From NCBI GenBank assembly GCA_051362555.1, contig CM120645.1, positions 10,168,001 through 10,232,000 on the forward strand: a stretch of DNA of 64,000 nucleotides, written 5' to 3'. The DNA comes from Lingula anatina. Taxonomy: Eukaryota > Animalia > Brachiopoda. Below, piece by piece: positions 2,452 through 33,316 of this stretch. Position 1 is the stretch's first letter; every line of letters begins with the position of its first letter. The notes under the pieces were generated by a model that saw only the letters and a list, made by a program, of their open reading frames with translations, had not been told where the DNA came from and ran no database searches. The position numbers and the translations under genes were made by a program.

Positions 2452-4781
2452 AACTAGAGGATCAGAGAGGCGATACCGCCTCCGAATATTGTACCACCAG
2501 CTGGAGCAAGCGCATTCGTATAGACCCCCACATACACAAAATAAGGGTCACAGCCACCAGTCTTCTGCTTGACAAGCTGTAAAAATGCAATCAACAAGAA
2601 TTTTCAAAATATGCAAAAAATATATATGCCTAAAAATGGTACAATCAAAGTTAAGTTCATCGTAAGGTAGGTCAAAAGTCAATTTCAAGGTCACAGTAAA
2701 TTGCCAGTATATGACTTCCTATTCAACTTCAACAGTAACTATGGACCTATCTCTGCCAGTTTTGGAGATAAAAGGGAAGCAAAATTTGCAAAGTTCAGTT
2801 CATGGTGAAAAGTAGGTCAAAGGTCAATTTCAAGGTCACAGTAAGATTGTCAGTATATGACTTCCTATTCAACTTCAATAGTAACTATGGACCTATCTCT
2901 GCCAGTTTTGGAGATATAAAGGACTTAATGTTATAATTTTGGAGTTACCATAATGTGCCATAAATTTCCTACAGAAGAAATTAATTAAAATAAAGAAAAG
3001 GTCATTTTGGTCAAAATTCTTGAAATGGGAGGTGCTCCGAAGTTCCAGATGTTCAAATTTGATGAAATAATGTCATTTTTGACCACAAGTTGTCTGCTTT
3101 GCCAAGCCTTATGTTTTATTTTTCCGGAGTTCAAAATTTATTATCCATTACCGTACTACACATTTTGCTTTCACCACCAATACGTACTTTTTGATACAAC
3201 GTAACTTTGGAGATAAAAGTCAAGCAAAATTTGCAAAGTTCAGTTCATGGTGAAAAGTAGGTCAAAGGTCAATTTTAAGGTCACATTTAGATTGCCAGTA
3301 TATGACTTCCTATTCAACTTCAATAGTAACTATGGACCTATCTCTGCCAGTTTTGGAGATAAAAGGGAAGCAAAATTTGCAAAGTTCAGTTCATGGTGAA
3401 AAGTAGGTCAAAGGTCAATTTTAAGGTCACATTTAGATTGCCAGTATATGACTTCCTATTCAACTTCAATAGTAACTATGGACCTATCTCTGCCAGTTTT
3501 GGAGATAAAAGGGAAGCAAAATTTGCAAAGTTCAGTTCATGGTGAAAAGTAGGTCAAAGGTCAATTTTAAGGTCACATTTAGATTGCCAGTATATGACTT
3601 CCTATTCAACTTCAATAGTAACTATGGACCTATCTCTGCCAGTTTTGGAGATAAAAGGGAAGCAAAATTTGCAAAGTTCAGTTCATGGTGAAAAGTAGGT
3701 CAAAGGTCAATTTCAAGGTCACAGTAAGATTGTCAGTATATGACTTCCTATTCAACTTCAATAGTAACTATGGACCTATCTCTGCCAGTTTTGGAGATAT
3801 AAAGGACTTAATGTTATAATTTTGGAGTTACCATAATGTGCCATAAATTTCCAACAGAAAAAATTAATTAAAATAAACAAAAGGTCATTTTGGTCAAAAT
3901 TCTTGAAATGGGAGGTGCTCTGAAGTTCCAGATGTTCAAATTTGATGAAATAATGTCATTTTTGACCACAAGTTGTCTGCTTTGCCAAGCCTTATGTTTT
4001 ATTTTTCCGGAGTTCAAAATTTATTATCCGTTACCGTACTGCACATTTTGCTTTCACCACCAATATGTACTTTTTGATACAGTGTAACTCAAAAACCGTA
4101 TGGAATACAAAAAAAACGAGACCACTTCCAGTGTTGGGCTTTACATGCTCTACAAATTGCAAAAAAGAATGGGTCTCTAGCATTAACGGTTCCCCAATTA
4201 GAGACAGTTTTCAGTTTCGGTATCTTATGGCCGCTACTCCCGTGAAAATGCACCGATTGACCCCAAATTCACGGAGATGAAAGATGACCTGAAAGGTAAC
4301 ACTTTCCAATAATATTATTGGTTAAGTCTGTGTGGTGTCTGAATAACAGGGCAAATAATTTTTTTTTCGTAAAAAAATTCATTTTTTTGAAAATTTTGGC
4401 CCGTTTGACCTTGAAATAAAGGTCAAAGGTCAAATCCAAGGGCATATTTGAAATCTACACATATGACTTTTGGAAAGCCGTCTGTAGAAATTTTTCCCAT
4501 AATTCCTTCCGTAGGGTAGATAATTAGCATTTAATTTTGCCATTTTTAGACAAGGGTGCATTGCAATGAGTGCCACACCTAGACCCCAAAACCGACAAAG
4601 CCCAAATTTTATGTGGAACGAGTTGAGATTATAGGTGACCTAAATCCAAGAGATGGGTACGGGGGCCCTTACCGTCTAGGAGGAGAAGCGGTAACGGTAG
4701 CCGTCCGGCGGAGCCGGCGGAACGATCCGGACGGGACTAAAACCATGTGTACCGCCAGCGCTAACGCTGGTGGTACAATAA
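2452..4781 (-). mobile_element. Non-autonomous Helentron-associated element (HINE/DINE-1-like) with internal tandem repeats
   Basis: Subterminal inverted repeats ATTGTACCACCAGC (2488-2501) and GCTGGTGGTACAAT (4766-4779). Short hairpin GAGGCG-atac-CGCCTC (2467-2482). Longer hairpin TGTACCGCCAGCG-ctaa-CGCTGGTGGTACA (4748-4777). A-rich flanks, no TSD. Confidence 0.75.
2645..4090. repeat. 146-bp tandem repeat array with an 883-bp higher-order duplication, inside the HINE
   Basis: CAGTTCATGGTGAAAAG recurs at 3241, 3387, 3533 and 3679 (period 146). The spacer block is duplicated at 3007 and 3890 (offset 883). Confidence 0.9.
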
Positions 4782-4852
4782 ACATCAATGCTGTCATATC
4801 ATACATAATACAAGAAAAGTGTACGTCTACATGCAAATGAACAGTGTGTATA

Positions 4853-5298
4853 TTTTGCCAGAGTGTAGCCGCTAGCAGCTAGCTTCCGGCAACCCTGTGG
4901 CTTACCTCCGGCAACATGCTCTGTATATAGCCGCAGATAACCCGCTAGCTGCTTCCCTGTGGCAACATCCAGGGCATGTTGCCAGAATGTAGCCGCTAGC
5001 GGCTAGCTTCCGGCAACCCTGTGGCTTACCTCCGGCAACATGCTCTATATGTAGCCGCAGATAAACTGCTAGAGGCTACCTTGTGGCAACATCCAGGGCA
5101 TGTTGCCAGAATGTAGCCTCTAACGGCTAGGTTCCGGCAACCCTGCGGCTTACCTCCGGCAACATGCACTGTATATAGCCGCAGACAAGCCGCTAGCGGC
5201 TAACCTGTGGGGATACTTTCCGGCAACATTTTTATATTGCCGGAGTACTCCTGCTATACTCCGGGAGTACTCCGGCAACATTTTACGTTCTGTAAGGG
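4853..5298. repeat. 124-bp GC-rich tandem repeat, probably the subterminal region and right end (GGG|TA) of a truncated CACTA/EnSpm-like element
   Basis: GA(G/A)TGTAGCC recurs at 4861, 4985 and 5109. The array ends in ...GTAAGGG-TA, like the element at 11299-14723. No left end found. Confidence 0.55.
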
Positions 5299-7627: not shown

Positions 7628-8516
7628 TTAAAATTACCCATTCCAAAAAGGCGGGAAAATTTTGACTCCTGAAAATAAAAAATGACTCGTAATCTGCAGT
7701 GTCAGCGAGTCATCTGACTCTCTAGTTCCAAATTGTAAATAAAACACTGATTGAGGTCCAATATTCTGGTGAATTCAGGATCACTAGGTGCCGAGGTTGG
7801 TAGTTGGATAGGCCTGTGGTTTAGTAAAGCTGCAGCTACAGCTTAATTGTTTAGAAAACCAGCATAAGTACCTTAGTTAAAAATTTAAAAAATGACTGAT
7901 GGTTCTATATAGCACCAGAAAATATTTGTTCAAATACCATTTTTGGGAAATACGAAATGATACCCTTTGCTATTTCTTTAAGTAAAGCTATCAAAAACTA
8001 TATGAGGGGGGCAAAGTTTTGTGAAAAAAAATTGAAATGCATCTTTAAAGGTTTTTATCATCTACTTACCAGCATTATTCAAGTTGCATTTGCAACATAA
8101 TGTACCACTTGGTTTGTTGAAAGTGTCATTCTTGTCCCCAAAGATTTTCTGGGCAAAAAATAAATTGTCATTCATGAAAATGAAAAATAATTTTAAACAT
8201 GATAACTTGGTTATAATTATATATGTCATCAACAATTTTGCTCATAATAGCTGCATGTGAAATTAGTGTACAAGGGCTTGAGTGTCATGATAATTTTAAA
8301 CATCAAATAATAGTAAATAATTCATCAAAATTTGGGATATACTAGTAATTGTGTTTTATGTTGATCTGGATATGCATACAGTGAGAACAAAATGTGTCAT
8401 TTAAATACATCTTATCAACTTAAAAGATACAACATTTCAAATTACAAAATCATTTTTGTGCCTTCATTTTAAATGATACCAATCTCAGTATTTTAAATGA
8501 TGCCAATTATGTGACA

Positions 8517-11500
8517 TTATTGAGCAAAGGTCACCATTTTAATGAGACCCTGAAGGTCATCCAGGTTTATTCTGTCATCTATTGGTTTCACACATTCCAA
8601 GGCCAACTTAGCAAACTCAGTTGTACAATTGGATTCTCTTTCAGGACAGCCAGGCCAGACAGCAGGTAAGGCTTCCTGTGCCTTAATAAAAACCTACAAA
8701 GGCAAATAAAGTCCTATGAGTTCACTGTATAGAGGGCAAAGTTTAAAAAAAATATATATAATTTTATGACTAATGTCAACTTTGTCTTTTTACACAATCA
8801 AGAAAAAATACAACAAAAAATTCCTAACTTTTCCATTAATTGATCTTTATACACACACAAACACACCTTTTTGGTAACCTCGTCCACATGAACTTGAAAT
8901 TTTCCATCTTCAGTCCTGCACTCCTTCAAAAACTCTTCTTCTGCTCCCATCAACCTCCACATCACTAAAAAACCAATTAGAGAAAACTGCAACATGCAAG
9001 TCGTCTACACCCTTCCTTCCCTTTTCTAAAACAGATAACTTAGAGACCATTCAGAATTGAGGATCTTCTGATTCACGGATCAAATATAGCAGACCCTACA
9101 TGCAAAATATTTGCAAATGCTAGCACTGTAACTGATTTGTCAGCTTGAGCCTGAACTATGCTGTAACATTTAATTTCTTACCCACTCCAACACTGAAAAC
9201 ATCATATTCCTTGCGGTATTTTCCCTGAGAGGAAAGGAAATCTGGATCTTGGTAAATCTGATCGTGGTGATCAACAGAAGTAACCTCTGCAGTGGGGCCA
9301 TGAAATCTAAGGCGAGCATTCCAATCCTGATCCAACAAAATGTTGCTGGGCTTGATATTCATGTGGAGGATAGAATTCCTAAAAGGATATAAAATACTAA
9401 TCAGATGAATAACTTATTCATCTACTAAAAAAATAATGTCTTCAATTGTTAAGAATGCTGTAAATACATTGTTTGGGATTTTACCACACCAGAAAACAAC
9501 ATTTAAACTATATATTTTGTAAGATTTCACATTTTTTCATTTCTTTATTTAATCTTGTGGTTTAGTCTGGTACATAACACATTCACCTGAAAACCATGAA
9601 AATATATTCAGTGTAAAAATAAAATAATTCAATTCATTTTTTTTATTTTTTTCATTTTAATAAAATTAATAAATTTCATTTTTGGCAACTTCGCTACTAG
9701 AAAAAAATTTTAAGAAAATAATGGAAATGAAAAATACAACCAAAATATATCTGAAGGATTTATATTTTGTTTTGTTACCTAATTGTGACATTCTCCCTTT
9801 CAATTGGTGAATGAAGATATTGCAGGCCTCCACACACTTGGTACATAATGCGGCACCTGTGATGCCGTTCAAGTTTAGAGCTTTCATTTTTTAATACATG
9901 ATCCAAGTCTCTCCTTTCCATATTATATGGATACATCAAATAGATTTTTCTGAAAGTATTTTTTTAAACATCAGTAAAATCTCATATGAGCAGTTGTTAC
10001 CCCTTTAAGTAAGCAAACCAACCATACAAAGCCATAAAAATTAACTTTAAATTTTTTTTTTATTGTAAAACCTCCCTTGTTACAACTGATAATTATACTT
10101 TAATTCATACTCACTCCGGTGTGGCAGCAACTGCAAATAACGGCAACAGAAAGGGGTGTCTTATGTAACCAATAGTCCTTTCCTATTAAACATAAAAATG
10201 TTAAAACTCCAAAATAAAAATAAAATGATCTTAATTACAATTAAAGCTTATGTTTCTACACCAGACACCATTACAGACACAAGTTTGGAGTACTATACAT
10301 GTCTCAGAAAAAATACCACTACATTTCATATAATGATTTTCTTCTTCTGTTTTTATTTTATTCTAACTAACTTAAAGGTACATACATGCATATTCGTCTA
10401 AACAAAAGTTTAGCAAATGCAACAAAAGAAATCAGCTTTTATTCATTGCTTACTGTGCCATTGTATATACTGTATCTGACCCTATTCTCCTCCAAAAACC
10501 ACAAAATGTAATTTGATTTTACACTACGTCAGCAGCTTTTTCACTGGCCAACCATCCCAAGTATTTACAACCTGTGATAATCAAATAATACATGCACATG
10601 TGTTACTAAAGATTGATACCTTGATAAACTGAAGCTCATGTTCCTCTCCGGCTTTTTGGCAAACTTCAACTGCAATTTCTTTTTTTCTGTATTTTTTTAA
10701 ACCTGCAGTAAATTTTTTAAAAAATCTTAATTAAACTAAAATTAAATAAAACAAAAATTACTTCAGGACAAGTATCTGGATAATCTCTAAAAAAATTAGT
10801 CATTTTAAAAGACATCTTTCAGATATTAAAAAAAAAAAAAAGAATCTTCCAATTTCAATTGTGTACTAGCTAGTAATCACCTTCAAAAAAATCTCCATAT
10901 CTGCTCTTCCCCAAAGAATTGTTGCTACAGTATCGTTCCATCTCTGAGACACTCATGTACTCCAGCACTGGACCATCTGGTGGTTCAAGAGAACAAAGTT
11001 ACACAAATCAATAAAGTAAAAAAATAAATGCTCATCATTTCTCAGGCATGTCATGTTTTGTGTTAGTTGGTGGAAGTTAATATCATTACAAATCTCAGAG
11101 TCTAGCAATATTTCACTAGGTGTAAAAATCATGTGAAAACTATAAGCTTACAATAAATGATGGCATGCTTGTAGGATGACGTATTTTTCTGTTACCTGAT
11201 TCTCCAGCATCTGGCTCACTGAACCCTTGAGAAGATACTGCTGGTCTAATCAACACTGATGCCTCCAGACCTGGCAATATATGAAATTATACTAATTACC
11301 CAGCAGGCACACAACGTTGATTCAACGTTGAATCAACGTTGAGTCTCAACGTTGAATCAACGTTGAATTTATGTTTGAAAACGGAAGTTTGTGTCAACGT
11401 TGAAAAATCAACGTTGAATCAACGTTGAAAAGTCAACGTTGAATCAACGTTGGCAATTCAACGTTGAATCATGATTGATAGTTCAACGTTGTTTCAACAT

Positions 11501-14500
11501 TAGAAATCTCAATTACCGTTTATTATATGTTGATTTAGCATTGATTATATCTTGATTTAACATTAAATAAAAGTTGAGACAAATAGCATTTTCAATGTCT
11601 TTATTTTGTCACTACATAAAAGGAAAAATGCTGCTAATTTCAGTAGTTAAAATATACATAGTTTACAACATAGCAATAATAAATAAAAAACTAAGAACAA
11701 CACTTTTTTTTTTTACAAAACAAAGCTGCACATCGAATCTGAACTAACACAAAAATTGTAATGATGCATGTACATGGGGGGGGGGAGAGATTTTTGCACA
11801 CCTTAACCTAAATTATACTATACATTGTCATTTTTAAAGTAAATTATAATTCAAACATATCATTAATAATCATAATCACTAGTTCTGTAATAAATAAATC
11901 TTGAATAATGAATGAAAAAACATTGTTTTTTAGAAGACAGAGAGTTCATTATAACAAAATTATAAATAACCATGCAGTAACTGTTTCAATTAAACTTGCA
12001 TGCTGTCAGTGTCTACATACATGCAAACTCTGAAAAAAGAATCATGTATACCCCATAGATATAGATGTACAATAAAAAGACAATTACATGTGCACAAACA
12101 CAAACCCCAGTATATTGTTGATGCTTTTGAATGAAATTGCATCATGAATAATATCACTCAATGAGTTGAACCAGTTTGGAACACTTGTGCTTTTTTCATA
12201 TCCATATCACTAAGAAATGATACATCAGACTCCTTGACAAGCTAATAATAATTAAAGGAATTAACAATGCAACAAGTACATCTACCAAATTAACAACAGC
12301 TCATTTAAATGTCAGGTAAAAACACAACATCCCTTCCTTTGTTAAAGAGAATTAAACTGTCCTTTCAAATATATGCTAATTGACAGTTCAGTCTTTAAAT
12401 TGTCTTTTCAAACATTTGCAGAATAACATATGAACTCCAACTATAATTATTCTAACCACATTGAAAATTCTCAAATCTAATCAACTCATATCAAACCCCA
12501 TGTCCCTTTCACTACTACAAATTCCACATGGTCTCTTTCTTTGCCTGCCTTTAAGTCACATTCAAATGCTCCCTTCACTTTAAAGGTTTCTCAGACGTGT
12601 CTGAATAATACTGTTTGTTTTGTGGTCCTCCACAAGAGCCTGAGACACATTTTTTTTTCTTGGATTGCAGAATTCCCCATGTATTTTCATCAGTGATATT
12701 ACAATATGCGCCTGAATCTGGTAATACAGCTAGTACACTGAGATTAATGCCGCCTATCTCTATTTCCATCAAGTCTCAGTGTATATTGCATTGGTTACCC
12801 CACACCAAATGTATATGCACTCCTGGATTATCATGTTCATAACTGTCATATACATGAATCTTAGTTTCAGTTTTGCAGACTTGTTGCACGTTCCATGTTT
12901 TCTCAGTCGGGGTGGCTTCTACTTCGTTTTTTCATGTCTGAACTCGTGGTGTTTAGACTGAGTTGGTTTGTCAAATGACTTCGGTTTTTAACATACTCAC
13001 AGTTTCTGGAGTTGCACTTTCATTTAAAGCGTTAACAGTCTATGTGTATCCATGTTTCACACCTGCAGTATGTTTGGGTGAGTCATGAAAATATCTTGTA
13101 CACATGTCCCCCTGAATGCTACATCAGCGCGCGTCTCTTCTGACATGTATTTTTTAATTTTCTGTCTTTGTTCATTATTTCTTTTCGTCCGTTGGTTCTG
13201 AAACGATCAAACCTTTTCCGTCAGCAAATGATTTATCTCTCTCTTTCTCATCCTGCAAACTGTCTAGCCAGCGTGGCCCGTATTTCTCCGGACTTCTGTA
13301 CGCTTCGAATTTCGTAATTTCACGTTTTTCCTCCATTTTCTCAAAGAAAGTTGGCTCGCAGTTTTGCACTAAAGTTAATCCTCGTCTCCAGTGTTGATGC
13401 CTTCGAATTATATCGCATCACAAATCGAATCAATCAACGAATTGTATCAGTTTGATACGCCTGTGCTTCTTCGTATCCACAAGCGTATCAGTTTGATACG
13501 CCTGTGCTTCTTCGTATCCACAACTCTAAAAACGCTACATCCGGGTACTTGACCGGCTTGTCATAAAAAGCGGAATTTAAAAATAGCGGAACGAGTACTT
13601 AGCTCTAAAAAGTTAACAGTTCATTCAAATGTCAAGTCCAATTTATATCAAATTGTGCAAATATGATGAGGGGACTTTGAAGAAAAGAGAGAAAGAGAGG
13701 GATAAATCAAAATTGATCAAATGACGTTAGTTTGAAATGCATTCAGCTCACTTGTCAATAAAAAAAATAGACAAAAATTAAATAATTAAAATAATAAAAT
13801 AAATAAATAATAAAATAAATGACATCACCAAATATTGGCTTGATGGCAATATATATATATTGATTTTTCTGTGTAGGCTTCAAATAACTGTCACCTGCAG
13901 TCTGTCGTCGCGGTCGGCATGCATACTGTCTCAAGTTGAAATGCAAAAACTGAATCCATGTTGAATTAACATCTTTAACTAATTATATAAGTCACCTCCT
14001 GAATAGTCATTATGTTAACTTGAAATGCCAAAGTTGAATCAATGTTAAAACCTGACCAGAAAATCAATGTTGGGAGGAATAATTGAATCAATGTGAAAAA
14101 TTTACTCAAACATCAACATTCAAAAATGCAAGTTGAATAAGGTTGAAATAATGTAGGTTTATCAATTAACTCAATCTTTCTTCAAAGTTGAATCAATGTT
14201 GACCTGCCAACGTTGAATTTGTTGTCGTTGAATCAAAGTTGAATCAATGTTGAAATGCAAACGTTGAATTTGTAGTCGTTGAATCAACGTTGAATCAATG
14301 TTGAAAAGTCAACGTTGAATTTGTTGTCGTTGAATCAAAGTTGAATCAACGTTGAAATGCCAACGTTGAATTTGATGTCGTTGAATCAAAGTTGAATCAA
14401 CGTTGAAATGCCAACGTTGAATTTGTTGTCGTTGAATCAATGTTGAATCAACGTTGAAATGCCAACGTTGAATTTGTTGTCGTTGAATCAACGTTGAATC

Positions 14501-15367
14501 AACGTTGAAATGCCAACGTTGAATTTGTTGTCGTTGAATCAACGTTGAATCAACGTTGAAATGCCAACGTTGAATTTGTTGTCGTTGAATCAACGTTGAA
14601 TCAACGTTGAAATGTCAACGTTGAATTATGGTCGTTGAATCAACGTTGATTCAACGTTTATCAACGTCTCAACATAAATTCAACGTTGATTCAACGTTGA
14701 ATCAACGTTGTGTGCCTGCTGGGTAAGTATTCAACATGTACATGCAAGTCATACTATAAAAAATATGACTTTAAACGTGATTTAGTAAATACTAACACTT
14801 GTGAAAAAAAAAAATCGACATATTGCACACTTATACAGTACCTTCAGGAAAGAGATTCCAGATTTTCTTCCAATTGTCTTCATCTTCCCAAGCATCTTTG
14901 TTGCTCAGCCGTATGGATTTGTAAGCACGAAGGGAAAATTCTTTCATTTTTGTTTGCAGGTATATGGGGACTATAATTATACCATCAGTGTTTTCTTCAG
15001 TTTTGTAGTCTACTATGTTATAATGGATGTCCAGCAACATGGACTTTGGATCTTTTTCGCTTTCATCCAGATGTTTTTTCCTCTTTTTACTATCACGTAC
15101 TTTTCCTAAATACCCATCAGTCATAACCATTATGACATGGTTAGATTTTTCTACCGCAGAATAAATTTCACTAGCTTCGTTTTCTCCAGCTTTTATCATC
15201 AAGTGTGGAAGAAAGCAATGAATGCCACATCTTTCAGCTTTTTCTTGAAGAAGTTCCACAAACTCGTAGGATAATTTGACAGAGTCGGTGTTTTCTTCCC
15301 CTGAGAAACAGCCATCATACACCACAGTAAAATGATAGCTGTCTCTTACAGGCAAACTGGTAGCCAT
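8517..15367 (-). CDS. Gene A: TIR domain + IRAK/Pelle-like pseudokinase, 496 aa, 9 coding exons (14842-15367, 11196-11270, 10881-10976, 10620-10702, 10115-10182, 9779-9949, 9182-9378, 8867-8964, 8517-8693)
   Basis: All introns are GT-AG and the phases join into one 1491-nt ORF. Kozak-like GCCGGCCATGG. TIR: YHFTVVYD..FVELLQEKAERCGIHCFLPHLMIKAG..EIYSAVEKSNHVIMVMTDGYL..IIIVPIYL. Kinase fold: LGKSRYGDFFEG, IAVEV, FIKERTIGYIRHPFLLPL, LMYPY, RCRIMYQVCGGLQYLH, ILHMNIKPSNILLD, RFHG, YQDPDF, YDVFSVGVVMWRL, LALECV..RINL. Confidence 0.85.
12400..13523 (-). mobile_element. Degenerate Gypsy LTR-retrotransposon 5' fragment (LTR end, PBS, gag, aspartic protease) inside the CACTA-like element
   Basis: Minus strand reads ...CATCAACA-C-TGGAGACGAGGAT (13378-13392), i.e. 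an LTR end followed by a TGGCGACGAG-like PBS. Gag-like remnant RWLDSL..FADGKGL; protease-like IEIGGINL..LPDSGAYCNITDENTW. Frameshifted. Confidence 0.7.
14180..14710. repeat. 54-bp tandem subterminal repeats built from TCAACGTTGA palindromes
   Basis: Visible periodicity; the overlapping ORF 14309-14593 repeats an 18-aa unit (54 nt). Confidence 0.9.
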
Positions 15368-17582: not shown

Positions 17583-20115
17583 CTTTTTATGCCATCACCT
17601 GCGTCTGTCGTTGCTGTCGTCGCCGTCGTCGGCACTTTCAGCGTAAACACAATAAGTGGAAGACAGTTTTACTTCTTGGCTTTATATTTACAGAGCTGAT
17701 GAATATTCATAAAACGCAGGTCAAGTTTGAAAATTAGCATGATCGGGCCATTATTGTAGAAGTTATGCTGTTTTTTCACTTTTCAGCATATATGCAACAC
17801 TGTAAACACATTTCAAGGAAAACCAGTAGGCCTGTTGTCATGAAACTCAGAGGAGTAATCAATCTTACTAAAACGCAGGTCAAGTTCGAAAATCAGCATG
17901 ATCGGTCTACTATTTAAGGAGTTATGCTGTTTTTTCACTTTTCAGCATATATGCAACACTGTAAACACAATAGAAGAAAAACAGATAAGCCAATTGACAT
18001 TAAACTCACAGGAGTGGTCAATCTTACTAAAATGCAGGTTGAGTTCGAAAATCAGCATAATCGGGCCATTATTTTAGAAGTTATGCTGTTTTTTCACATT
18101 TCCTCAGATTCAATTCTTAGGCATGTTAACAGTCTCATTATTTAACTAATAAGATACGTTTAAGTGTTTGTTTGACATTTCCTGCATCTTTACAACATTG
18201 TTAGTTGATTAAGTAAAAGTGATGGTAAACTTGTTATCGTGTATTGTGCAGTTAAGTTTCAAAATTGGAAATAAACTCATATCATTGCAGTTTGTCAGAT
18301 TCAATCATTCACTATGTTCAGAATCTCAGAAAGGAGGAAGTTGGACATTTAGCACTGTTCTATTGATATTTTTCCCATCTCATCAATTTTCTTAGTTGAT
18401 CATATAAAAATGGCAGTAAACTGTTAATTTTGTTTTATGTTAAAAAATTGTTTAAGATGGGAAAAAAACCATTTAAGAACAGTGCTGTCTTGTTTACATT
18501 TTGGCATTTTCAAGGTGTGACTTTGAAGTTCCATGGGCCTGAAGACCTTTGCTAGTCCCATTTTCTGAATATCCATGATACTAATATTTTATTATTAAAA
18601 ATTGATGGTCATTATGCTGTTAAACGTTATGTAATGTTGCGTTATGTAAAATTTAAAGAATCCCCTATTTTGGGCACTGCTCCCATGATGACCATTTAAG
18701 GAAAACTGTGTCACTTACTGTTCTCAAACTTACAGGAAAGAAACATGGGACTAAAATACAGCTTCAGTAGGCAATGCAGTCTGTTTGGTAAATTTTTTCT
18801 GGCAGTTGAACAGTTTTTTGTGAAAATTTTATTTTTCACATATTGGCATTTTCAGGGGGTGACTTAGAACCTCCACTGGCTTGAAGACCCATGCTAGTCA
18901 CATTTTCTGAAAATCCATTACACATATATTTTATTATTAAAAGTTGATGGTCATTATGCTGTTAAGCATTATGTAATGTTGCATCAAAATAGACTAGAAG
19001 AAAACACAATTTTGGGTGCTGCTGCTATGGTGACCATTATGGGAAAACCATGTTACTTATGATTGTCAAACTTTCAAAAAAGAAACACAGGACTAAAATG
19101 CAGCCTGAGTTGGAAAAGCAGTCTAATTGGCTTCTTTTTCTGGAAGTTATACATTTTAGTGAAATATTCATTTTTATTGTGTTGGCATATTCATTGTGGG
19201 ACTCAGAGCTCCCATGGACATGAAGCCAAATGGATGCAAATTTGCTACATGTCCATGCTATTTATAGTCAATAATCAAAATTGGTGATAATTATTCTGTT
19301 ATTTATTATGTCATGTTACATCAAAATTGACAAAAATCTTTTTGCACTGCTACTACAAACATTATGAAAAGAAAACTGTGTTACTTATTATTATTTTTAA
19401 CTGACAAGTTTGATTTTTAGGATTGGAATGCAGTTCAAATTAGAAAGCCAGCTCAGCTGGGTTATCATTTATTATTGAATTTATGCAATTTTGTGTGAAA
19501 TTTTCATTTTTCTCATTCTGGTATTTTCAAAGTGTGAACTTGAACTCCCATGGGCCTGAAGCCTTATGCTTGTTACACATTTTACTTACATTGGTATTAC
19601 CTGCTGAGCATAATTAAAATTTGATTTTGAATTTGCAGTTAAGCATAATGTACTTTTGCATCAGAATTGACAATAGCTTATTTTGTGCATTGTTATTTTC
19701 TGCTTTTTGTCTGTACATTTGACAGCTTTGCTGCCTTGTTTCACTCCTTATAATTCTGTGGGAACTTGAAATTTGTCCCAGAAAAAGTAAAGGAGCAAGG
19801 CATGAACAAACAGTTTAGAAATTTGATTCTAGAATTTTCCCAAGCAGGGTAATGACCATGAGAAAAACAGAAAGAAAATTATAGGGCCACAAGTGTGTGA
19901 AATGTGGGAAATACTGTACAAAATGATATAATGTCGTATCTTATAAAACAGGCAGTAGAAATTGGTGTCATGGTATATATTATATAATACATTTTTCTGC
20001 CCTTTACTGACTTTAGAAGAATTCAATTTAAAAATTTGCCTTTAATTTTTTTTACTTTCAACCTTTCCTAGATTGTCAAAACAGTGCCCAGCTGCAGGCA
20101 TGCAGTAGTACTAGC
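17583..20115 (+). mobile_element. Old non-autonomous element (HINE-like) with 159-bp and ~340-bp internal tandem repeats
   Basis: Starts with a T-run and a (GTC)n-like microsatellite. AAAACGCAGGTCAAGTT-like unit at 17711, 17870, 18029; TGGCATTTTCA..CCATGGGCCTGAAG-like unit at ~18502, 18844, 19183, 19519. Boundaries approximate. Confidence 0.5.
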
Positions 20116-22419
20116 TGTTGTTGTTGCGGGGGCGTCTCGATAGTCCGAAGGTTCATTGGTCCGAAGGTTCATTGGTCCGAAAATTCGTAAATTTTTCATC
20201 AGATTTTCAACAAAAAGGTTCATTGGTCCGAAGGTTCATTAGTCCGAAAATTAAAGGTCCATTGGTCCGAAGGTTCATTAGTCCGAAGGTTCGATAGTCC
20301 GAAGGTTCATTAGTCCGAAGGTTCGATAGTCCGAAACATTTTAAGATGTTCTTCGATTTTAAGAATTATAATTACAAACGGAATCTAAGGGTGCGTTCCC
20401 AACGAAACTATCAGTCTACGTAGATTGATCCAACTCCACCAGGATTCTCACTGTATGCAATCAGATTAGCAATCCTGGAGCAGCTAGGGGGTGATTAACG
20501 TTCGTGTGAACTCAGCTGCAGCTTCTAAAAATCTTTATCATTTCGTTTTGAGTGCGACCGAAACGCACGTGAAAATTATCCATATAGGTCGTATTGTTTC
20601 CGTGAACTACTCTTTACAATGTGGGGAAGTTTGGGGATATGCAATGGCTACCCTCTCCAACTCATGAACACCATACATGTTTCACATGAAATATTGAATA
20701 AAGATTGGAACGCATAAAATGAGAGGACGCTTATAATGACATTTAATCGAATGGCCTGTGCTATTATTTTTGAATTGTATAAGAACACATTACTTAAAAG
20801 GACACAAAAGAGGATTTTCGCGCCAAAATTGATTTATCCTGATTTATCCCGAGGTTAACACTACTTTTCCGCGATTTACCAACCTTTAATCTATCATTCC
20901 CGGCACTCGCCATCGCTCTGTAACATTTTTGGAAAATACAATAAAAAGAAAACCTCCGCTTAAGCGGAGGTTTACCAACAACCACCTCCATTTTCATAAT
21001 TGAGCTCTCTAGACTTCCGGATCTCGCGAGATTCTCGTATTGCGACCTAGTTAAAACCAGTTCAAGCTGCCGGGAAAGGACAACGTGAAACAGGAGGCTC
21101 AGTTATGCTGGGAGTCCTTCGAAGAAGCGAAGACAGATAACAAAAAGAAAAAAGAAACAGCCTTTACAAAAAACATGCGTAAAACAGTGTATCAGCAAAT
21201 GTACGACAGGCAAACAATAAACACCGGCGAGGAAGAAGGCAGATGAAAACCTGCTTGGGTGGCCATGGATACGAAGAATGGCCTGGCCGCGAAGTATTTA
21301 CTGGATTTGTGAGTACCATATACAATAATCTTTGAGATAAGACACCAGTGAAAATATTTATTAAGCACAGAGATTTATGTTTATTTACGTGTGTTCGTTG
21401 TATATCTTAACGATTGTCAGGCTCGTCTGTCAAAATATGCCATGAAATTGTAACTAATATGAGTGGTATCGATGACAGAAATTGCAAGTGTTGCTCATAT
21501 GTCGACTCTGACAGGGTTTGGGTTAGTTTATAGAGCAAAGAAAGTTTAAATAAAAACGGACATGGTGGGAGATACTAGTCTCATTACATATACATTACAA
21601 TGACCAGGGCGAATTTTTGACTTACCGAGGGCACATTTCTTGTGCCTCTAACATCTAGGCATACCACAGTAATTAAGACATATGACAAAGATGCTATTTC
21701 TTTAGGCATCTAAATCCCAAAATGAATGCGCAGAAGCTGTTATTGTATCTAAGTTTAACCCAATGTTAAATGGCATGTCAACTATAAGTGAAAATAAATA
21801 GTAGTATTTTGATTTAATATTTTAAAGACAATTTGTCTCCTTTTTACATTAAAAATAAATAAATCAGAAAGGGGATATTGCATGTTTATGTTTGGTACAT
21901 CTCTCTAATGTATTAAATAGTCCAGAGTTATAATTTAGATCATACAATTTTAACTTCCAACCAGTATTTCGGAGATTAAACCAATATGAAGTGATCAAGA
22001 AACTTCAAAATTAAGTTGTAGTTAATACTAGTGCAGTTGAAGATGACAGTCTAGATAATTTAAGGTGATCATATTGAGAAAAATGGCATTTATACTTATT
22101 TCAGTTGAGTTTTATACTTATTTCAGTTATGTTTTTACATAATTTTTCTCAAACTCGATTATCTTATTTTATGTACTGTTGCTTTTTTTTTTTTTTTTTG
22201 GTTGCAGTATCAAGGTAACTTTTACCTATGGTATGCCTGAACTGGAAGAAGTGCAGATGGAAGAGGTGAAGATGCTGAAGAAGAGGGAATTAAAGGATCC
22301 TGATGATCCAACATGGGACTAAAACATGTCTTTAGAGTAAGCAGAATTTTAATAAGCTGATATTCACTCCTCATATATTAGGCATATAGGTGCATGATTT
22401 CTCTTTTATCAATTTTTTT

Positions 22420-24685: not shown

Positions 24686-26382
24686 AATAGTAAAATTACA
24701 TAAAATGGTTATAAAGAAAAAAATGTATTGATATTATCATAACAGCACTATTCTTTAACAAAAATCAACAAATTAGAGGGCATGATCACTACATGATAAC
24801 CAGCTTATTATAAAGAAGCAAGTCTGATTATGGCAAAAAAAAAATTAAATTTAAATATCTGCAGCTGCATTAAATCATAAAGGCCACAAGAAGAAATAAC
24901 ATAATCACACATGGTTTCAAAGAACTGATGTAAAAAAATCACACTAATATTCCCCACTTGGAATTAGAATTTTGACTAGCTAATTTACTACAGTAAAGTG
25001 CTAAACCGTACCAAATGGCACTGTTCACCCTCTAAAATACCAAAGTTTTAAGCAGGCCCAGGACCCCACGCCAACTAGGGGGGGTCGGCTTTGCATCCGC
25101 GGACCCCCCCCCCCCCCCTTTCAAATAATCCTGGATCCGCCCATGTTATACTGCTAAAATTATTAACATACCTGATCTCTTCACTCGTGCTTGAAGGGGT
25201 GTATCACCCAATTCCTCCTCTGAAAGGCTAAAAAATCATTCCTTATAATCATATTCATTGACAATATTATTAAATTTACAAATAAGCTAACGTAGTTACG
25301 TGCCGTACAAAGAACACCCTCTAACCCCACTAGTACTCGAGTTACATTGTATATCTCATGGGATTCCCCTGCGAGAATATGGTGTGAGGTTAGTCTGTAA
25401 GTACTGGTAGATGACCACATTGAGCAGAAAAGGGTATTCCTCCTGCTTTACAGAACTATACACCTCAGGGGTAAAGTGCACTATCTCGCTTCTTATAACT
25501 AGTAGTACGTACCCAGTGCGAGTGATTTGGCTGCGAGTGCGTTACCCGAGGAAACGTTAATTATTAGCAGTTATCTACGCTTTTTAACTTCCTCTGCCAG
25601 ACATTTTGATTTCCACTGCCATCTTCCCATTTTAAAGTACTTTTGGTAAATATAACTCGCTTACCTGCAAAGATTCGATGAGCAATTCCTCTTCTCCTTC
25701 ACGTCCACGCTCACCTTCGAAACGACATGCTGTCTGCATTGTTTACATCTCGTATCTGAGTCGAGAAGCCGCGTTATTTCAAACTGTGTCAAGATGGCTG
25801 ACGCCCGGGGTTCGAAAGTGGACGGTGAATATGATTCTTTTTTTCGATATTGATTAAGGCCATTTACCTGTCATTTTATGCTTTACCCATAGCAATTGTT
25901 GTCAGATAAGTTAAAAAAGAAGCAATCCATGCACTAAAAAGGCGTTTTTAATCCTATTTTTTGTCCCTTTAAATTATGTAAAAGTTATAGAATAATTGCA
26001 TTTCCAAACAAACTATGTTGTTGTTCGCACAGCCCACTCCCCTCCCCTCCCCCCCCCCCCCCCCCCAAAAAAAAAAAAGAAAAAAATAAAAAACAGCCGT
26101 TCCGCCAGCAGTATTGTATTACTCATAGGGATGAGGATGAATTAACTGGAGTGTAAACTTGGCATATAAACAAAAATTACGAGCATTTACGAAAACAAAC
26201 TTTTCCCTTACTAGGGCTTTAAACATAAAAATTGTATCAGAATACAGTAATATGCTCAAATATCCACAAATAGTAATACATATTTAATTCCACCCCCTCT
26301 TCCCCAGCAATACTGAAGGTGCTGAAACGTTTATAATCTGAAATAGAAATGTGGCAACGCCATATCAACCCGGTGGTCCTAT

Positions 26383-27713: not shown

Positions 27714-28681
27714 ATGGCTACCAGCAGGTCTAGATCTGTACCAGACAGCTATAACTTTACAGTGGTATATGATGGATGTTTATCTTGGGACGACAAGACT
27801 GACTCCACCAAATTATCCTATGAGTTTGTGAAATTACTTCAAGAAAAAGCCAGAAAACAAGGCATTATTTGCTTTCTTCCACACTTGATGTTAAATGCAG
27901 GGGAAATGGAAAAGAGAGAAATTTATTCTGCTGTGGAAAATTCTGATCATGTCATACTTGTTATGACTGAGGGTTATTTAAGAAAAATGGGTGGTAAAAA
28001 AAGTCTAGATAGCCAGAATGATCCAGATTTGATGTTGCAGCAAATCCATTATAACATAATAGACTACAAAATTTCTGAAAATGCTGATGGAATTATCGTA
28101 GTGCCTATTTACCTGCAAACACGTAAGAAGGAAATTTCCCTTGGTGCGTACAGATCCATACAGTTTAGAAAGAAAGAAGATTGGGATGATGAAGAAAATT
28201 GGGAGAAAATCTGGAATCTCATTACAAAAGGTACAGAGTACTGTAAGAGTATTTGCCATGGAAATTTTTATGTCACATCATTTAACTAGAGGTACATGTA
28301 TATATGGTATTGACTCTATCTTCTCAATGAACATAGCAGTCTTCTAGTTAAATGATTTTGCAATCATTTATATCAACTAAATTTCTGTACAGCATTTATA
28401 GTGTTTTGACTGTATAGAATACAACTGTAGGGTACCCTGCTTTCTATTTTGTGCCACAACTCGATAAGAATATTCTTACTATAATTTAAGAAATTATGTC
28501 TTAAAATTTTTTCCTATTGTAAAGATCTAGTCATTGCTATAAAAAGTTCAAAACAAAATCTCTTTTAAGGTTTTAATGTGTGCAAATGAATGTATAAATT
28601 ATTGGAAAAGAAGAGTTCATACCATCATCCTACATGCATGCTGTCTTTTATTGTTAGGCTTCCACATGATTTTTACACCTA

Positions 28682-28719
<38 letters not shown>

Positions 28720-29616
28720 CTTGTGTTATACTTTGAGAAATGTCTCAGAAAAGATAAAGAGACAGTTGGGTAGTATGACTTTCATATATATGTTGAATAC
28801 TTTAGTATTATAATAATTTCATAAATTGCCAGGTCTGGAGGCATCAGTGTTGACTGGGTCTGCAGTATCTTCTCAAGGGTCCAGTGGGCCAGAGGCTGGG
28901 GAATCAGGTAACAGAAAAAATAGGTTATTTTAAGGACTATAAGTATACAGGACTTCAAGCTTCAAATGATGTCCATTGTGCTACCTTTTTAATCAATTGT
29001 GAAACATTCAAGGTTGTACTGCTGAGCTGAAATAGTTCGCAGCAAATACCATTTTTATTTATTTGTATATATGCAAAAACAATCATATATATATATATAA
29101 ATTTTTAATAAAACTGTCTAATAAAATTATGATTTACTGAAATATCTGAGGGCTCAAAAGGAATGACTTGGTTCCCACGTGTTGGTTCCCCTTAACCTAT
29201 TGTACTAGCAGGATCTGAGGAGATTCTTACCAAAATGCATTCATTTGAAGCAGCTTAAATGTCTGTCACACCCAATGAAGCTGTTAGGGGGCAATTAACA
29301 TTTGTGCATCCTAAAACTGAATGCAATTTAGTGAGAAACCCCTCGGAGATAGATTGATCCTGCTTGTAGAATAGGGTTATGGAAATGGTCCCATAGACAG
29401 AGCTTCATCTGATGGCAAATATATTTTCTAGCTCAAAATGATTCCAACCAGGGAGTGAGAAGCCAAGAACCTGCTGCTGCTGCTGTAAGTGCGACTGCCA
29501 CTGAAACCGCTGAAAATCCCCAGGATTCAATGCAGTTTGAATCGCTGACATCAGGTTTGTATAACAATATGTATTGTGTGTTGTAATGAACGATTAGAGA
29601 ATACATTTTGTCATGT

Positions 29617-29698
<82 letters not shown>

Positions 29699-31639
29699 GT
29701 TATTATTATTATTATTATTAATATAAGCTGTAGCATATAGTCTGGAAAGGGATACTTCTCTGAAATTCTGTTACACGTGTGTCCCTTTATATGCTGAAAG
29801 TAACCATGTATGCAGTGTAAAGTGTGAATATTTTTTAATTCCACAGACGCCAGAGTAAGTTCCGAAGAGACAGCAGGGTCTTCAACTGCTGATAGTAAGA
29901 CAGATGCCCAACAGAGGTCTGATTCAACTGAAGATGATAGCACAGCTTCTCGAGATCACCATCCAGGATCTCCGCCATGTGTAAACATGGATTCCAGTTC
30001 CAGTGGTGCAAGGAGTAAGGTTTTTTTCATCATGATTGGTGCAGTGTTCTGTACTGCAACAGTTTGAGTCACTGGCATCTTAATGGCCTGGTTATTGTGT
30101 TAGAGTTACCTAAAAGCACTGTAGTGGATTTGGGGGTGGAGGTGGGGGTGTCAGGGGGGTTTTGTCTACCCCCCCCCCCCCCCCCCCCCCATTTTCCGTT
30201 TCTGTGTACTGTAAGAGTATTTGCTGTGGGAATTTATATCACATCATTTAACTAGAGGAACATGTATATATGGTGTTGACTCTTATCTTCTCAATGAAGA
30301 TATCAGTCTTCTAGTAAGATGATTTTGGAATCATATCAATTAAATTTCTGTACAGCATTTATGGTGTTTTGACTGTACTGTATAGAATACAACTGTAGGG
30401 TACCCTGCTTTCTATTTTGTGCCACCACTCTATAAGAATATTGTTACTATAATTTAAGAAATTATGTCTTAAATTTTTTTCTAATTGCAAATTAAGATCT
30501 AGTCATTGCCATAAAAGCTGGTGTTCAAAACAAAATCTCCTTTAAGGTTTTAATGTGTGCAATTGAATGTAGAAATTATTGGAAAAGAAGAGTTCATATC
30601 ATTAACACTGCCACCCCCTCCCCCAAATTTCGGTGTCCTTCTGTGGGTAAAATCCTGGATATGTTAAACCTAGGACCTAAAATATTTATCTTCTATCCTA
30701 AATTAGACTTACTGTAATTATAATAATTATATTTGTTTGAGAAGTGTCTCAGATAAATTTAGAGACAGCTGACTAGTGTGATGTGCTTATCGTGTAGAAT
30801 ACTGCATTATTTTTAAATCTTAAATGGATGAAAAATAAAATATTCAGTTTGATGAATTATTTTATTATCAGATCTACAGCCATTGGTGTTGACTGGGTCT
30901 GCAGTATCTTCTGGAGGGTCCAGTGTACCAGATGCTGGGAAATCAGGTAACAGAAAAAATGTGTCATTTTTAGGACTATAAGTATACAGGACTTCAAGCT
31001 TCTAATGATGGACAATGTGCTCTCTTTTTAATCAGTTGTGAAACATTCAAAATTGTACTGCAGAGATGGAATATTTCACAACAAATGCTGTCTTTATCTA
31101 CTTGTACATGTATATATGCAAATACATTCCTCGTATATATGAATTTTTAATAAAGTTGTCTAATAAAGTTATGATTTACTGAAATATCTAAGGGCTCAAA
31201 AGGAATGACTGGGTTCCCATTAACCTATTGATAATTGTACTAGCAGGATCTGTAGAGATTCTTGCCACATTGCATTCATTTTAAGCAGCTTAAATGTCTG
31301 GCACACCCAATGAAGCTGATAGGGGGGTGCACGCTAAAACTGAATGTAATTAAGTGAGAAACCCCTCAGAGATAGATCAATCCTGCTTGTAGGATAGGGT
31401 TATGGAAATGGTCCCATAGACAGAGCTTCATCTGATGGCAAATATATTTTCTAGCTCAAAATGATTCCAACCAGGGAGTGAGAAGCCAAGAACCTGCTGC
31501 TGCAGCTGTAAGTGAGACTGCCACTGAAACCGCTGAAAATCCCCAGGAGTCAATACAGTTTGAATCGCTGACATCAGGTTTGTATAACAATATGTATTGT
31601 GTGCTGTAATGAATGATTAGAGAATACATTTTTTCATGT

Positions 31640-31721
<82 letters not shown>

Positions 31722-33316
31722 ATAAGCTGTAGCATTTAGTCTGGAAAGGGATACTTCTCTGAAAATCTGTTACATCTGTTTCCCTTAATATGCTGAAAGT
31801 AACCATGTATGCAGTGTAAAGTGTGGATATTTTTAAATTCCACAGACCCCAGACTATGTGACGAAGAGACGGCCGGGTCTTTAACACCAACTACTGATAG
31901 TAAGACTGATGCCCATCAGAGGTCTGAGTCAACTGAAGATGATAGCACAGCTTCTCGAGTTCACAATGCAGGATTACCACCATGTGTAAACATGGATTCC
32001 AGTCCCAAGGGTGCAAGGAGTAAGTTTTTTTTTAAATCAGGATTCGGTACTGCAACAGTTTGAGACATTGGCATCTTAATAACCTGGTTATTATGCAAGA
32101 GTTATTTAAAAATAGTGGTGGATTTAGCAGGTGGGGGTAAAGTGGGTCCTGACACCCTCTCGGTTTCTGGAAAAAAAAAAAAAACTTCCTGAAGGTGGCT
32201 TGATAATGATGAAATTCTGCCAGTACAAACAATTTAAATAGTCTGGTAAGACTAGCTCATTAAAAAGTTGCATTTGAATTTTATTTATTCATTTATAAAA
32301 TCATATGTTTAGGTTATTGTTAATTGCATAAAATGTGTTTATTAAGTTATTGCCAATTGCATAAAATGCAAAAAAATAAGTTTTTGTGTTCATTTGATTA
32401 TTTCAATATTCAATTAGAAGTTTAAAAAATCATTGTATATTGTCATAATGCTGTAACTCTTTTTAAAGGAGAGTTTTCAAAGGATAAGATAACTTCTTCA
32501 AAAATTATGATCTGGCTATAATATAAAACTATACTCAAAATTACTATTTAAATGATGAATATTTTTGTATAATAGGAAAATGTTGACTTTCAGGAACAAA
32601 GTCAAGTGATGAAAAGATGGAAAGTGAAGGAGGAGCATCTGGGATCCGTAGATCAAAGTCAGCACCTGTTCATGGAAAACAGCAGCAAGAAAACAAATCG
32701 CTACTACAAAAATTCAAGTAAGAAAACTGTTTGAAAGCTATTTAAGTTAGCATGCAGTTGTGCTGTTTCATTAAGTTTTTTCTTTGATTAAAAGGCAGAG
32801 GAGACATTTTTTACAGTATCAAAACTATAAGTAAGTTTTTTGATTCGTTTCCATCTGTTTTATGACTTTCATGTGTTTATGACAGGAAGACTGACCCAGT
32901 TGTAAAATAGACACTGAAATTCTAAAATGTCATATATGGAGGCTTGTAGTATGAAAGATAGCACTTTTTTTGCTTGTGTTAGCCAAAAAAGTACACAATA
33001 CATCATACAACTATTGCTTTTATTACTTTTACCATTTATCTGCTTATTTGTTAGCAACATTATAGATCAAAGTTATGATTGAAATTTTTAGAAACAGTTG
33101 GAATGGGATAGGTAAGAAATTATTAGACTTACTAGGTAGTATCTATCTATTGAATATAGTTGATATATAATAAAAACAATAATTGAGCTGCCTCAACTGA
33201 GGTCTGCACTTCTACACGCTTCCCTTGTTTTAAAGATAAATTGATTTCATTTTAGAGATTTGTTCAAAAGAGATAAAGGAAATGGCAAAGATGAATCAGA
33301 TCTCAGTGGTACATGA
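27714..33316 (+). CDS. Gene B: TIR domain + duplicated Ser/acidic disordered tail, 479 aa, 9 coding exons (27714-28230, 28833-28907, 29432-29554, 29847-30014, 30872-30946, 31455-31577, 31846-32019, 32594-32717, 33256-33316)
   Basis: TIR exon is paralogous to gene A (roughly 60-65% aa identity by eye) with the same phase-1 donor. The 75-nt exon 2 is homologous to gene A exon 2. All introns are GT-AG and join into a 1440-nt ORF ending ..GIRRSKSAPVHGKQQQENKSLLQKFKDLFKRDKGNGKDESDLSGT*. Downstream exons are low-complexity, so they are less certain than the TIR exon. Confidence 0.75.
28238..32160 (+). repeat. ~2-kb tandem duplication of intron 1 + exons 2-4 of gene B
   Basis: GTACTGTAAGAGTATTTG..CACATCATTTAACTAGAGG at 28238 and 30206; paired exons of 75/75, 123/123 and 168/174 nt; duplicated (AAT)n(ATT)n tract. 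Confidence 0.9.
29617..29722. repeat. (AAT)n followed directly by (ATT)n, a self-complementary microsatellite (second copy 31639-31725)
   Basis: Trinucleotide run that switches to its reverse complement. Confidence 0.9.

Follow-up and report, generated by a model that had tools for sequence, protein, structure and literature searches.

We analyzed a 64,000-nucleotide (nt) stretch of Lingula anatina contig CM120645.1 (the window, to which all coordinates refer) that carries a predicted chimeric gene on the minus strand, from 15367 to 8517, in which a TIR domain precedes a kinase domain that has lost its catalytic residues. A preliminary description of this DNA had claimed an intact spliced open reading frame (ORF) of 496 amino acids (aa) here, and splicing by coordinates bore this out, with nine exons, GT-AG ends at every intron, and zero internal stops. 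A TIR-only paralogue (27714..30019, plus strand) lies 12 kb away, head to head with the chimeric gene and facing away from it; it has a TIR exon, a linker exon, and S/T/A/E-rich exons but no kinase.

Structure of the predicted TIR-kinase gene

All exons of the chimeric gene lie on the minus strand. Exon 1 (14842..15367) supplies the ATG and, based on the splicing model and Pfam, a TIR domain; it encodes 175 aa and ends in phase 1. Exon 2 (11196..11270) is a 25-aa linker with phase 1 at both ends and is common to the TIR-only paralogue. Exon 3 (10881..10976) encodes a pre-kinase helix and a degenerate Gly loop, GKSRYG, and is followed by exon 4 (10620..10702), with the beta3 strand, where Lys is replaced by Glu (IAVE), and the beginning of helix C. 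The Glu of helix C and an RHP motif fall in exon 5 (10115..10182), while exon 6 (9779..9949) runs from the Tyr gatekeeper and hinge to helix E. In exon 7 (9182..9378), the catalytic loop reads HMN, with Asn for Asp, FHG stands at the DFG/DHG position, and the activation segment is shortened; exon 8 (8867..8964) encodes the C-lobe.

The kinase ends in exon 9 (8517..8693), which has either a donor at 8535, the form found in the family, or a read-through to a TAA at 8517, giving the 496-aa form. We found a tenth exon (8062..8148), absent from the preliminary description, by means of two automatically annotated L. anatina proteins, P0001 (XP_013412717.2) and P0002 (XP_013408857.1). It is in frame, opens the Cys-rich segment of the family (CCKC), and either uses a donor at 8070 that fits the consensus (CTG/GTAAGT), for a coding part of 8148-8070, or reads through to a TAG at 8062. 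Use of donor 8535 together with exon 10 gives a 519-aa form with the same ending as P0001, whose annotation has the same read-through end. The 496-aa end is thus probably a read-through into intron 9. P0001 independently backs the exon boundaries, as 264 of 296 aligned residues are identical, while the exon 1-2 and exon 2-3 splices are a model from sequence.

Downstream of exon 10, tblastn and a family hidden Markov model (HMM) located no further exons in the 8 kb that remain in the window, and tblastn and family HMMs located no DED or caspase-like exons anywhere within it. The Cys-rich segment stops mid-finger within the window, and the caspase-like exons typical of some relatives were presumably lost or lie outside. 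At the other end, an acceptor 16 nt upstream of the ATG points to a further, probably untranslated exon ahead of it. No stop interrupts the frame after this acceptor, but we rejected an upstream coding exon, such as a death domain in a MyD88-like arrangement, because the paralogue has an in-frame stop at this place and the L. anatina TIR paralogues share the start Met.

Exon 1 matched the Pfam profiles TIR_2 at 33.6 bits (cut-off, 28) and TIR at 24.8 bits (cut-off, 21.3), in line with the TIR expected from the preliminary description; in the same profile check, kinase exons 6 and 7 matched kinase families (E values of 2e-4 and 2e-6), each falling below the cut-off by itself. Atlas features of exon 1 scored 0.90-0.92 to TIR clusters, and eight of its 10 weak PDB sequence matches were TIRs. 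The predicted structure of exon 1, built from a 3-sequence alignment, was poor (predicted local distance difference test [pLDDT], 59.8). With this low-pLDDT model, Foldseek returned no match at an E value of at most 0.001, and the best hits of a VIA comparison were thioredoxin-like chains (Z, 5.9). A TIR search of 286 candidates yielded no longer proteins carrying this TIR, which is weak evidence, and a whole-library search gave two matches, one true paralogue and one repetitive protein, P0006, which we rejected as spurious.

A Pro in the BB loop counts as a feature of TLR/MyD88-type signaling TIRs. In a weak alignment, this loop has Ala-Gly in the window TIR and Gly-Gly in P0005, a related L. 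anatina TIR protein, versus Pro-Gly in Hydra TRR-2. No Glu of the window TIR aligned with the Glu of WCLDEL in RUN1 and RPV1 (weak alignments; E values, 0.2-0.35), and no Glu is conserved among the three TIR family members in the region of the NAD-hydrolyzing (NADase) Glu, where the Hydra TRR-2 alignment was also weak. With no NADase Glu evident in these weak alignments, an enzymatic output of the TIR is doubtful.

The kinase half showed the motifs GKSRYG at residue 223, IAVEV at 242, HMNIKPSN at 345, and RLRFHG at 362, and an activation segment 7 aa shorter than in intact paralogues. The earlier reading of these motifs (GKSRYG, IAVE, HMN, RFHG, and a short activation segment) held up under alignment, which gave the substitutions G225S, G226R, K245E, D347N, D365F, and L368P. 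The C-terminal TRAF6-binding pattern of IRAK1, IRAK2, and IRAK3 is PxExx[FYWDE], and it had no match in the 519-aa model. A pseudokinase is defined by loss of the beta3 Lys, the catalytic Asp, or the DFG Asp (PMC4718504, partial text), and here all three are replaced (K245E, D347N, and D365F). Thus, the kinase half is predicted to be catalytically dead, whereas nucleotide binding by pseudokinases is not reliably readable from sequence according to the same partial text (PMC4718504). As the TIR has neither the BB-loop Pro nor an evident NADase Glu and the kinase none of its catalytic residues, we predict that each half serves for interaction.

Kinase relatives in Lingula and family placement

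A search with exon 7 recovered four proteins among 19 candidates, all from L. anatina: P0001, P0002, P0003 (XP_013382060.1), and P0004 (XP_013402827.1). P0001 is 89% identical to the window kinase and has the same three catalytic losses. We rejected P0001 as an allele of the window gene, given an 11% aa difference versus a reported heterozygosity of 1.6%, barring cryptic species. Residues 1-50 of its annotated N terminus match nothing in the window and, from a motif that they contain, presumably represent a spurious retrotransposon-derived exon. P0003 and P0004 are 61% identical to the window kinase and retain VAIK, HMD, and GDHG. By Pfam (two DEDs, kinase, and Peptidase_C14), P0003 is a DED-DED-kinase and P0004 a DED-DED-kinase-Cys-rich-caspase-like protein; neither matched a death domain in Pfam. 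These DED-DED-kinases belong to the same kinase family as the window gene (61-89% identity, with the pseudokinase copies) and share its exon boundaries, but the window gene has a TIR and linker for the DED pair and no caspase-like part in the window. The N terminus of the window protein is likewise a TIR by Pfam and not the death domain of IRAK, Pelle, and Tube kinases. With DED-DED-kinases as nearest kin, the TIR likely replaced a DED pair rather than an IRAK death domain.

P0002 runs from the equivalent of exon 10 into a caspase-like domain. It shows the DFG loss and 7-aa loop deletion of the window gene, yet retains the Cys-rich and caspase-like parts. The caspase-like part has SGHG and DCC motifs in both P0004 and P0002, the kinase of P0004 is non-RD (HMD), and the Cys-rich segment of both proteins looks RING-like by eye, with no Pfam match. 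The architecture of P0004 and P0002 is arguably as interesting as the TIR-kinase chimera itself.

With an intact kinase as query, 57 of 3554 candidate proteins matched. The matches outside Lingula were plant RLKs, one Drosophila Pelle, and bacterial kinases, at 24-34% identity, and none of the 57 proteins was annotated with a TIR family. Thus, among the proteins searched, the DED-kinase family was found nowhere but in Lingula. Atlas features pointed to kinase-plus-caspase clusters in arthropods and bacteria, which we treat as leads only.

A Tyr gatekeeper is a mark of IRAK/Pelle/RLK kinases. The window family has this Tyr (LMYPY, aligned with LVYQL and LVYEY), and Y138 of P0001 hardly varies. 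Plant RLKs took the first 15 places among the PDB sequence matches of P0003, and RIPK3, GRK1, AMPK, and IRAK4 followed at similar E values. The predicted structure of P0001 is a kinase fold (pLDDT, 76.5) whose best Foldseek matches were BAK1, FERONIA, and IRAK4, from a model biased by the RLK/Pelle alignment used to build it. Identity to Pelle is 24%. For phylogeny, we retained 56 of 70 extracted domains, dropping near-duplicate plant rows, some bacterial rows, and P0002 (too short); labels of "plant" and "bacterial" for nameless rows were assigned by the analyst, and the rows included no IRAK1, IRAK4, Tube, or RIPK sequence. A quick tree of these 56 rows placed the family with RLK and Pelle against bacterial kinases (support, 99), with no resolution inside that group. 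A tree of a 24-row subset placed the family, on a long branch, outside Pelle plus plant RLK (97/95), while an approximately unbiased (AU) test did not reject a grouping of Lingula with Pelle (P = 0.09). On these sequence comparisons, the kinase is RLK/Pelle/IRAK-like at the superfamily level only. The IRAK/Pelle-like kinase of the preliminary description stands in that sense, from the PDB matches, Foldseek, and the Tyr gatekeeper, while the trees do not show orthology.

Probable origin of the predicted fusion, selection, and RNA reads

Exons 1 and 2 are colinear with the TIR-only paralogue. The TIR exon is 64% identical in aa and 76% in nt to the paralogue exon at 27714, and the linker exon is 89% identical in nt over 113 nt, including flanks, and has the same phase 1. 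The paralogue itself matches L. anatina proteins P0005 and P0061 (86% identity to the P0061 TIR). Exons 1 and 2 therefore likely derive from the TIR-only gene family of this neighbor. Within the paralogue region (27714-32717, plus strand), we also observed an internal tandem duplication (28830-30143 versus 30869-32138; 85%), and with a read-through at 30019 the paralogue would end in a short hydrophobic stretch, which might anchor it in a membrane. The region as a whole is rich in tandem duplications.

The likely break between the TIR and kinase portions is intron 2 (10977..11195, minus strand), which is just 219 nt long. Its positions 11179-11117 resemble intron DNA of the paralogue, and the remaining intron sequence matched nothing in the part of the paralogue region that was searched. 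Since the match ends at 11117, the join likely lies between 11117 and 10977. Intron 2 contains no AATAAA and is so short that a 3' end and a second promoter would hardly fit. The simplest reading is that exon shuffling at a phase-1 intron placed a TIR and linker at the site that the DED pair occupies in family members.

Intron 1 contains an inverted-repeat DNA element of about 3.4 kb (11298..14724), with arms of 50 nt that are 98% complementary and a TA on both sides; all other introns are at most 437 nt. The element carries subterminal CAACGTTG arrays (51 nt), and its empty site is present in the paralogue. The two internal ORFs examined gave no transposase match. The insertion looks recent, and the element may be CACTA/EnSpm-like.

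Several measures point to selection. The ratio of nonsynonymous to synonymous substitutions (dN/dS) of the TIR exon versus the paralogue was 0.53 (bootstrap, 0.34-0.84; 170 codons), a mean of both lineages, and the exon has diverged to a dS of 0.41 with its frame unbroken. For the kinase, neutral simulations to 35% aa distance were stop-free in 1-2 of 1000 runs and had stops, frame, and splice sites all intact in none of 1000. All length differences from the paralogues are in frame, including a 2-aa deletion in exon 10 specific to the window gene. Columns conserved in Pelle/RLK kept their residue more often than others (41/55 versus 122/212; P = 0.03). These results support selection on the kinase frame over most of its history, and the preserved frame across the kinase exons, noted in the preliminary description, is non-neutral in that sense. 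They speak for long-term constraint; decay may have set in recently.

We looked at the exon 2-3 stretch in RNA from four runs under the same species label, of unknown tissue, of which 6-25% each was read. The stretch drew 25 reads (5, 5, 12, and 3 per run), none at an identity of at least 99%. The paralogue-type letter was present at 11222 in 22 of 22 covering reads and at 11203 in 18 of 19, and the loose ends of the reads resemble paralogue exons; these reads therefore come from other family members. Coverage of exon 3 was confined to one run, where it reached a depth of 1 across roughly 29 bases, and the counts (5 reads, depth of 5 on exon 2) suggest that the exon 3 read also sits on a linker-type exon. 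Given the small share of each run and the unknown tissue, low RNA counts say little. In runs X4 and X5, reads at 10860-11290 showed linker-type exons joined in tandem, implying family members with repeated linkers.

Interpretation, known systems, and other features of the window

The reading we tentatively prefer is that a TIR and a dead kinase were joined by exon shuffling in Lingula and that the product may act as a nonenzymatic adaptor or brake on a related DED-kinase pathway. A rearrangement inside phase-1 intron 2 would have swapped the DED pair for TIR and linker, in a recipient kinase lineage that was already losing catalysis. The TIR could then enter TIR assemblies, either of its own paralogues or of receptor or adaptor TIRs, and the folded dead kinase could bind catalytically intact members of its family, acting on them allosterically or by competition in the manner of IRAK3. 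Lacking both catalysis and a protease, the chimera would damp or re-route the output of the intact kinases rather than transmit it, a role suggested by analogy with IRAK3.

Several points weigh against this adaptor or brake. The pseudokinase lineage evolved several-fold faster than the intact lineage (stem, 0.58 versus 0.07) and has 32 unique changes versus 6, and simulated neutral drift over just the terminal branch leaves the gene wholly intact in 5-14% of runs. No exon 2-3 joint is listed among the 25 reads from the four partly sampled runs, and no database protein combining this TIR with a kinase was found among 286 TIR and 3554 kinase candidates. Within the intron 1 element lie a candidate acceptor (11611) and two AATAAA signals (11605 and 11524), which could yield a TIR-only product.

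It is somewhat unlikely, though the strongest of the alternatives, that this is a young or decaying chimera, the front of a TIR gene beside a truncated pseudokinase copy, barely expressed and becoming a pseudogene, each part having been selected in its own parent gene. The accelerated pseudokinase lineage and the short terminal branch, which may be open by chance, fit this view, as do the near lack of matching RNA in four runs, the truncation mid-finger after exon 10, the recent element in intron 1, and surroundings rich in tandem duplications. However, GT-AG ends and phase are kept at 9 of 9 introns, the 2-aa deletion of exon 10 preserves the frame, and the TIR exon has reached its dS without a break, while the low RNA counts carry little weight at this sampling.

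An improbable alternative to the adaptor or brake is a longer gene that continues beyond the window and encodes a TIR-pseudokinase-finger-caspase-like protein, a TIR-triggered protease or death switch with the dead kinase as scaffold or sensor. In its favor, exon 10 keeps the frame and has a donor that fits the consensus; P0002, whose kinase is also DFG-less, runs on from this exon to a caspase-like domain; and repeats occupy part of the 8 kb downstream. Yet no later exon was located in those 8 kb, when introns other than the element-bearing one are so short, and the annotation of P0001 stops at the same read-through.

Plant ZED1 and RKS1 are decoy pseudokinases, dead RLK/Pelle-superfamily kinases in immunity that partner an NLR as separate proteins and have no TIR themselves. 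A similar decoy, the alternative offered in the preliminary description, would bait pathogen effectors aimed at RLK/Pelle-type kinases and signal through the TIR. Evolution that is fast but keeps the frame, the absence of every catalytic residue, and the domain order would fit it. We consider it quite improbable; the weak alignments to RUN1, RPV1, and Hydra TRR-2 show no clear NADase Glu, which makes an enzymatic output doubtful. Unlike the plant decoys, the window pseudokinase itself carries a TIR. The main proposal of the preliminary description was a TIR in place of the IRAK/Pelle death domain, which would let the kinase dock on TLR or adaptor TIRs such as that of MyD88 and provide a myddosome shortcut. 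The resemblance to RLK and IRAK4 at the superfamily level, the Tyr gatekeeper, and the AU result would allow such a true IRAK/Pelle orthologue, but it is very improbable, since the nearest kin carry a DED pair and no death domain, Pelle is distant in sequence, the best 24-row tree excludes the family from Pelle plus RLK, the BB-loop Pro is Ala, the TRAF6 motif is missing, and the kinase is predicted to be dead.

Beyond the adaptor or brake, a wider view is that Lingula has a modular RLK/Pelle-type kinase family with swappable DED-pair or TIR inputs and a caspase-like output. The window gene would be a TIR-input pseudokinase member through which TIR assemblies feed straight into a death pathway of the DED-kinase-caspase-like type. 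We regard this as unlikely at present. If true, the gene would pair with intact paralogues or itself carry caspase-like exons beyond the window, and it would represent an animal kinase/pseudokinase paired switch built independently of IRAK and RIPK.

Close parallels include IRAK2 and IRAK3, in which, as in the window gene, a dead kinase of the IRAK/Pelle/RLK superfamily sits behind an immune interaction domain (PMC7955167, partial text). From the same partial text, the N-terminal domain of IRAK, Pelle, and Tube kinases is a death domain, and IRAK2 has the catalytic Asp replaced by Asn, as seen here (PMC7955167). Negative regulation of the IRAK3 type is thus plausible by analogy (PMC7955167). 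Compared with IRAK2 and IRAK3 as described there, the window gene has a TIR, no TRAF6 motif, and changes at the Lys, both Asp residues, and the G-loop.

The pairing of TIR with kinase is not new, being known in choanoflagellates and lancelets. Choanoflagellate "Kinase TIRs" combine both domains in one cytoplasmic protein and were proposed to bypass MyD88 and IRAK (PMC6040629, partial text). In these the kinase precedes the TIR and the available text describes no pseudokinase (PMC6040629), whereas here the TIR precedes the kinase; the two fusions presumably arose independently. Lancelet LRR-TIR-Kinase proteins are RIPK2 homologues, RIPK-type and with LRRs (PMC11747288, partial text), and Pkinase is listed as a TIR partner in amphioxus (PMC2575513, partial text). 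Lancelets and the window gene thus share lineage-specific shuffling of TIR with kinase in an invertebrate, and those partial texts report no dead kinase. Kinase-caspase and other unusual caspase fusions are described in lophotrochozoans (PMC11463336, partial text), and expansions of IRAK-like kinases with no death domain in placozoans (PMC6321704, partial text).

Neither a TIR-pseudokinase fusion nor the Lingula DED-kinase family appeared in the literature searched, although surveys of Lingula immunity and of ecTIR-DC, and supplements, may list them. If expressed, the gene would be a TIR fused directly to a pseudokinase, a type of fusion not found in that literature, and a case of immune domain shuffling in which both parent families can be recognized, one at a distance of 12 kb, and the probable break maps to a single 219-nt intron. 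It also exposes an unstudied Lingula DED-DED-kinase-caspase-like family, whose members databases label as plant receptor kinases. Its reach is capped by the known TIR-kinase pairings and by a family found in one genus only.

At 36700-63700 (minus strand), a gene fragment that includes hydrophobic exons occurs four times in tandem, in copies of about 7-8 kb with 85-96% identity; it weakly matches PLAT/LH2 (E value, 0.02) and may be polycystin-1-like. The stretches 20500-21500 and 25500-26000 are CpG-rich and promoter-like (observed/expected, 1.0-1.2), with exon-like segments on both strands, and may serve as promoters for the two TIR genes and for small unassigned transcripts. Arrays of 146-, 124-, and 159-nt units at 2646-5210 and 17710-18102 are probably parts of other repeats or elements.

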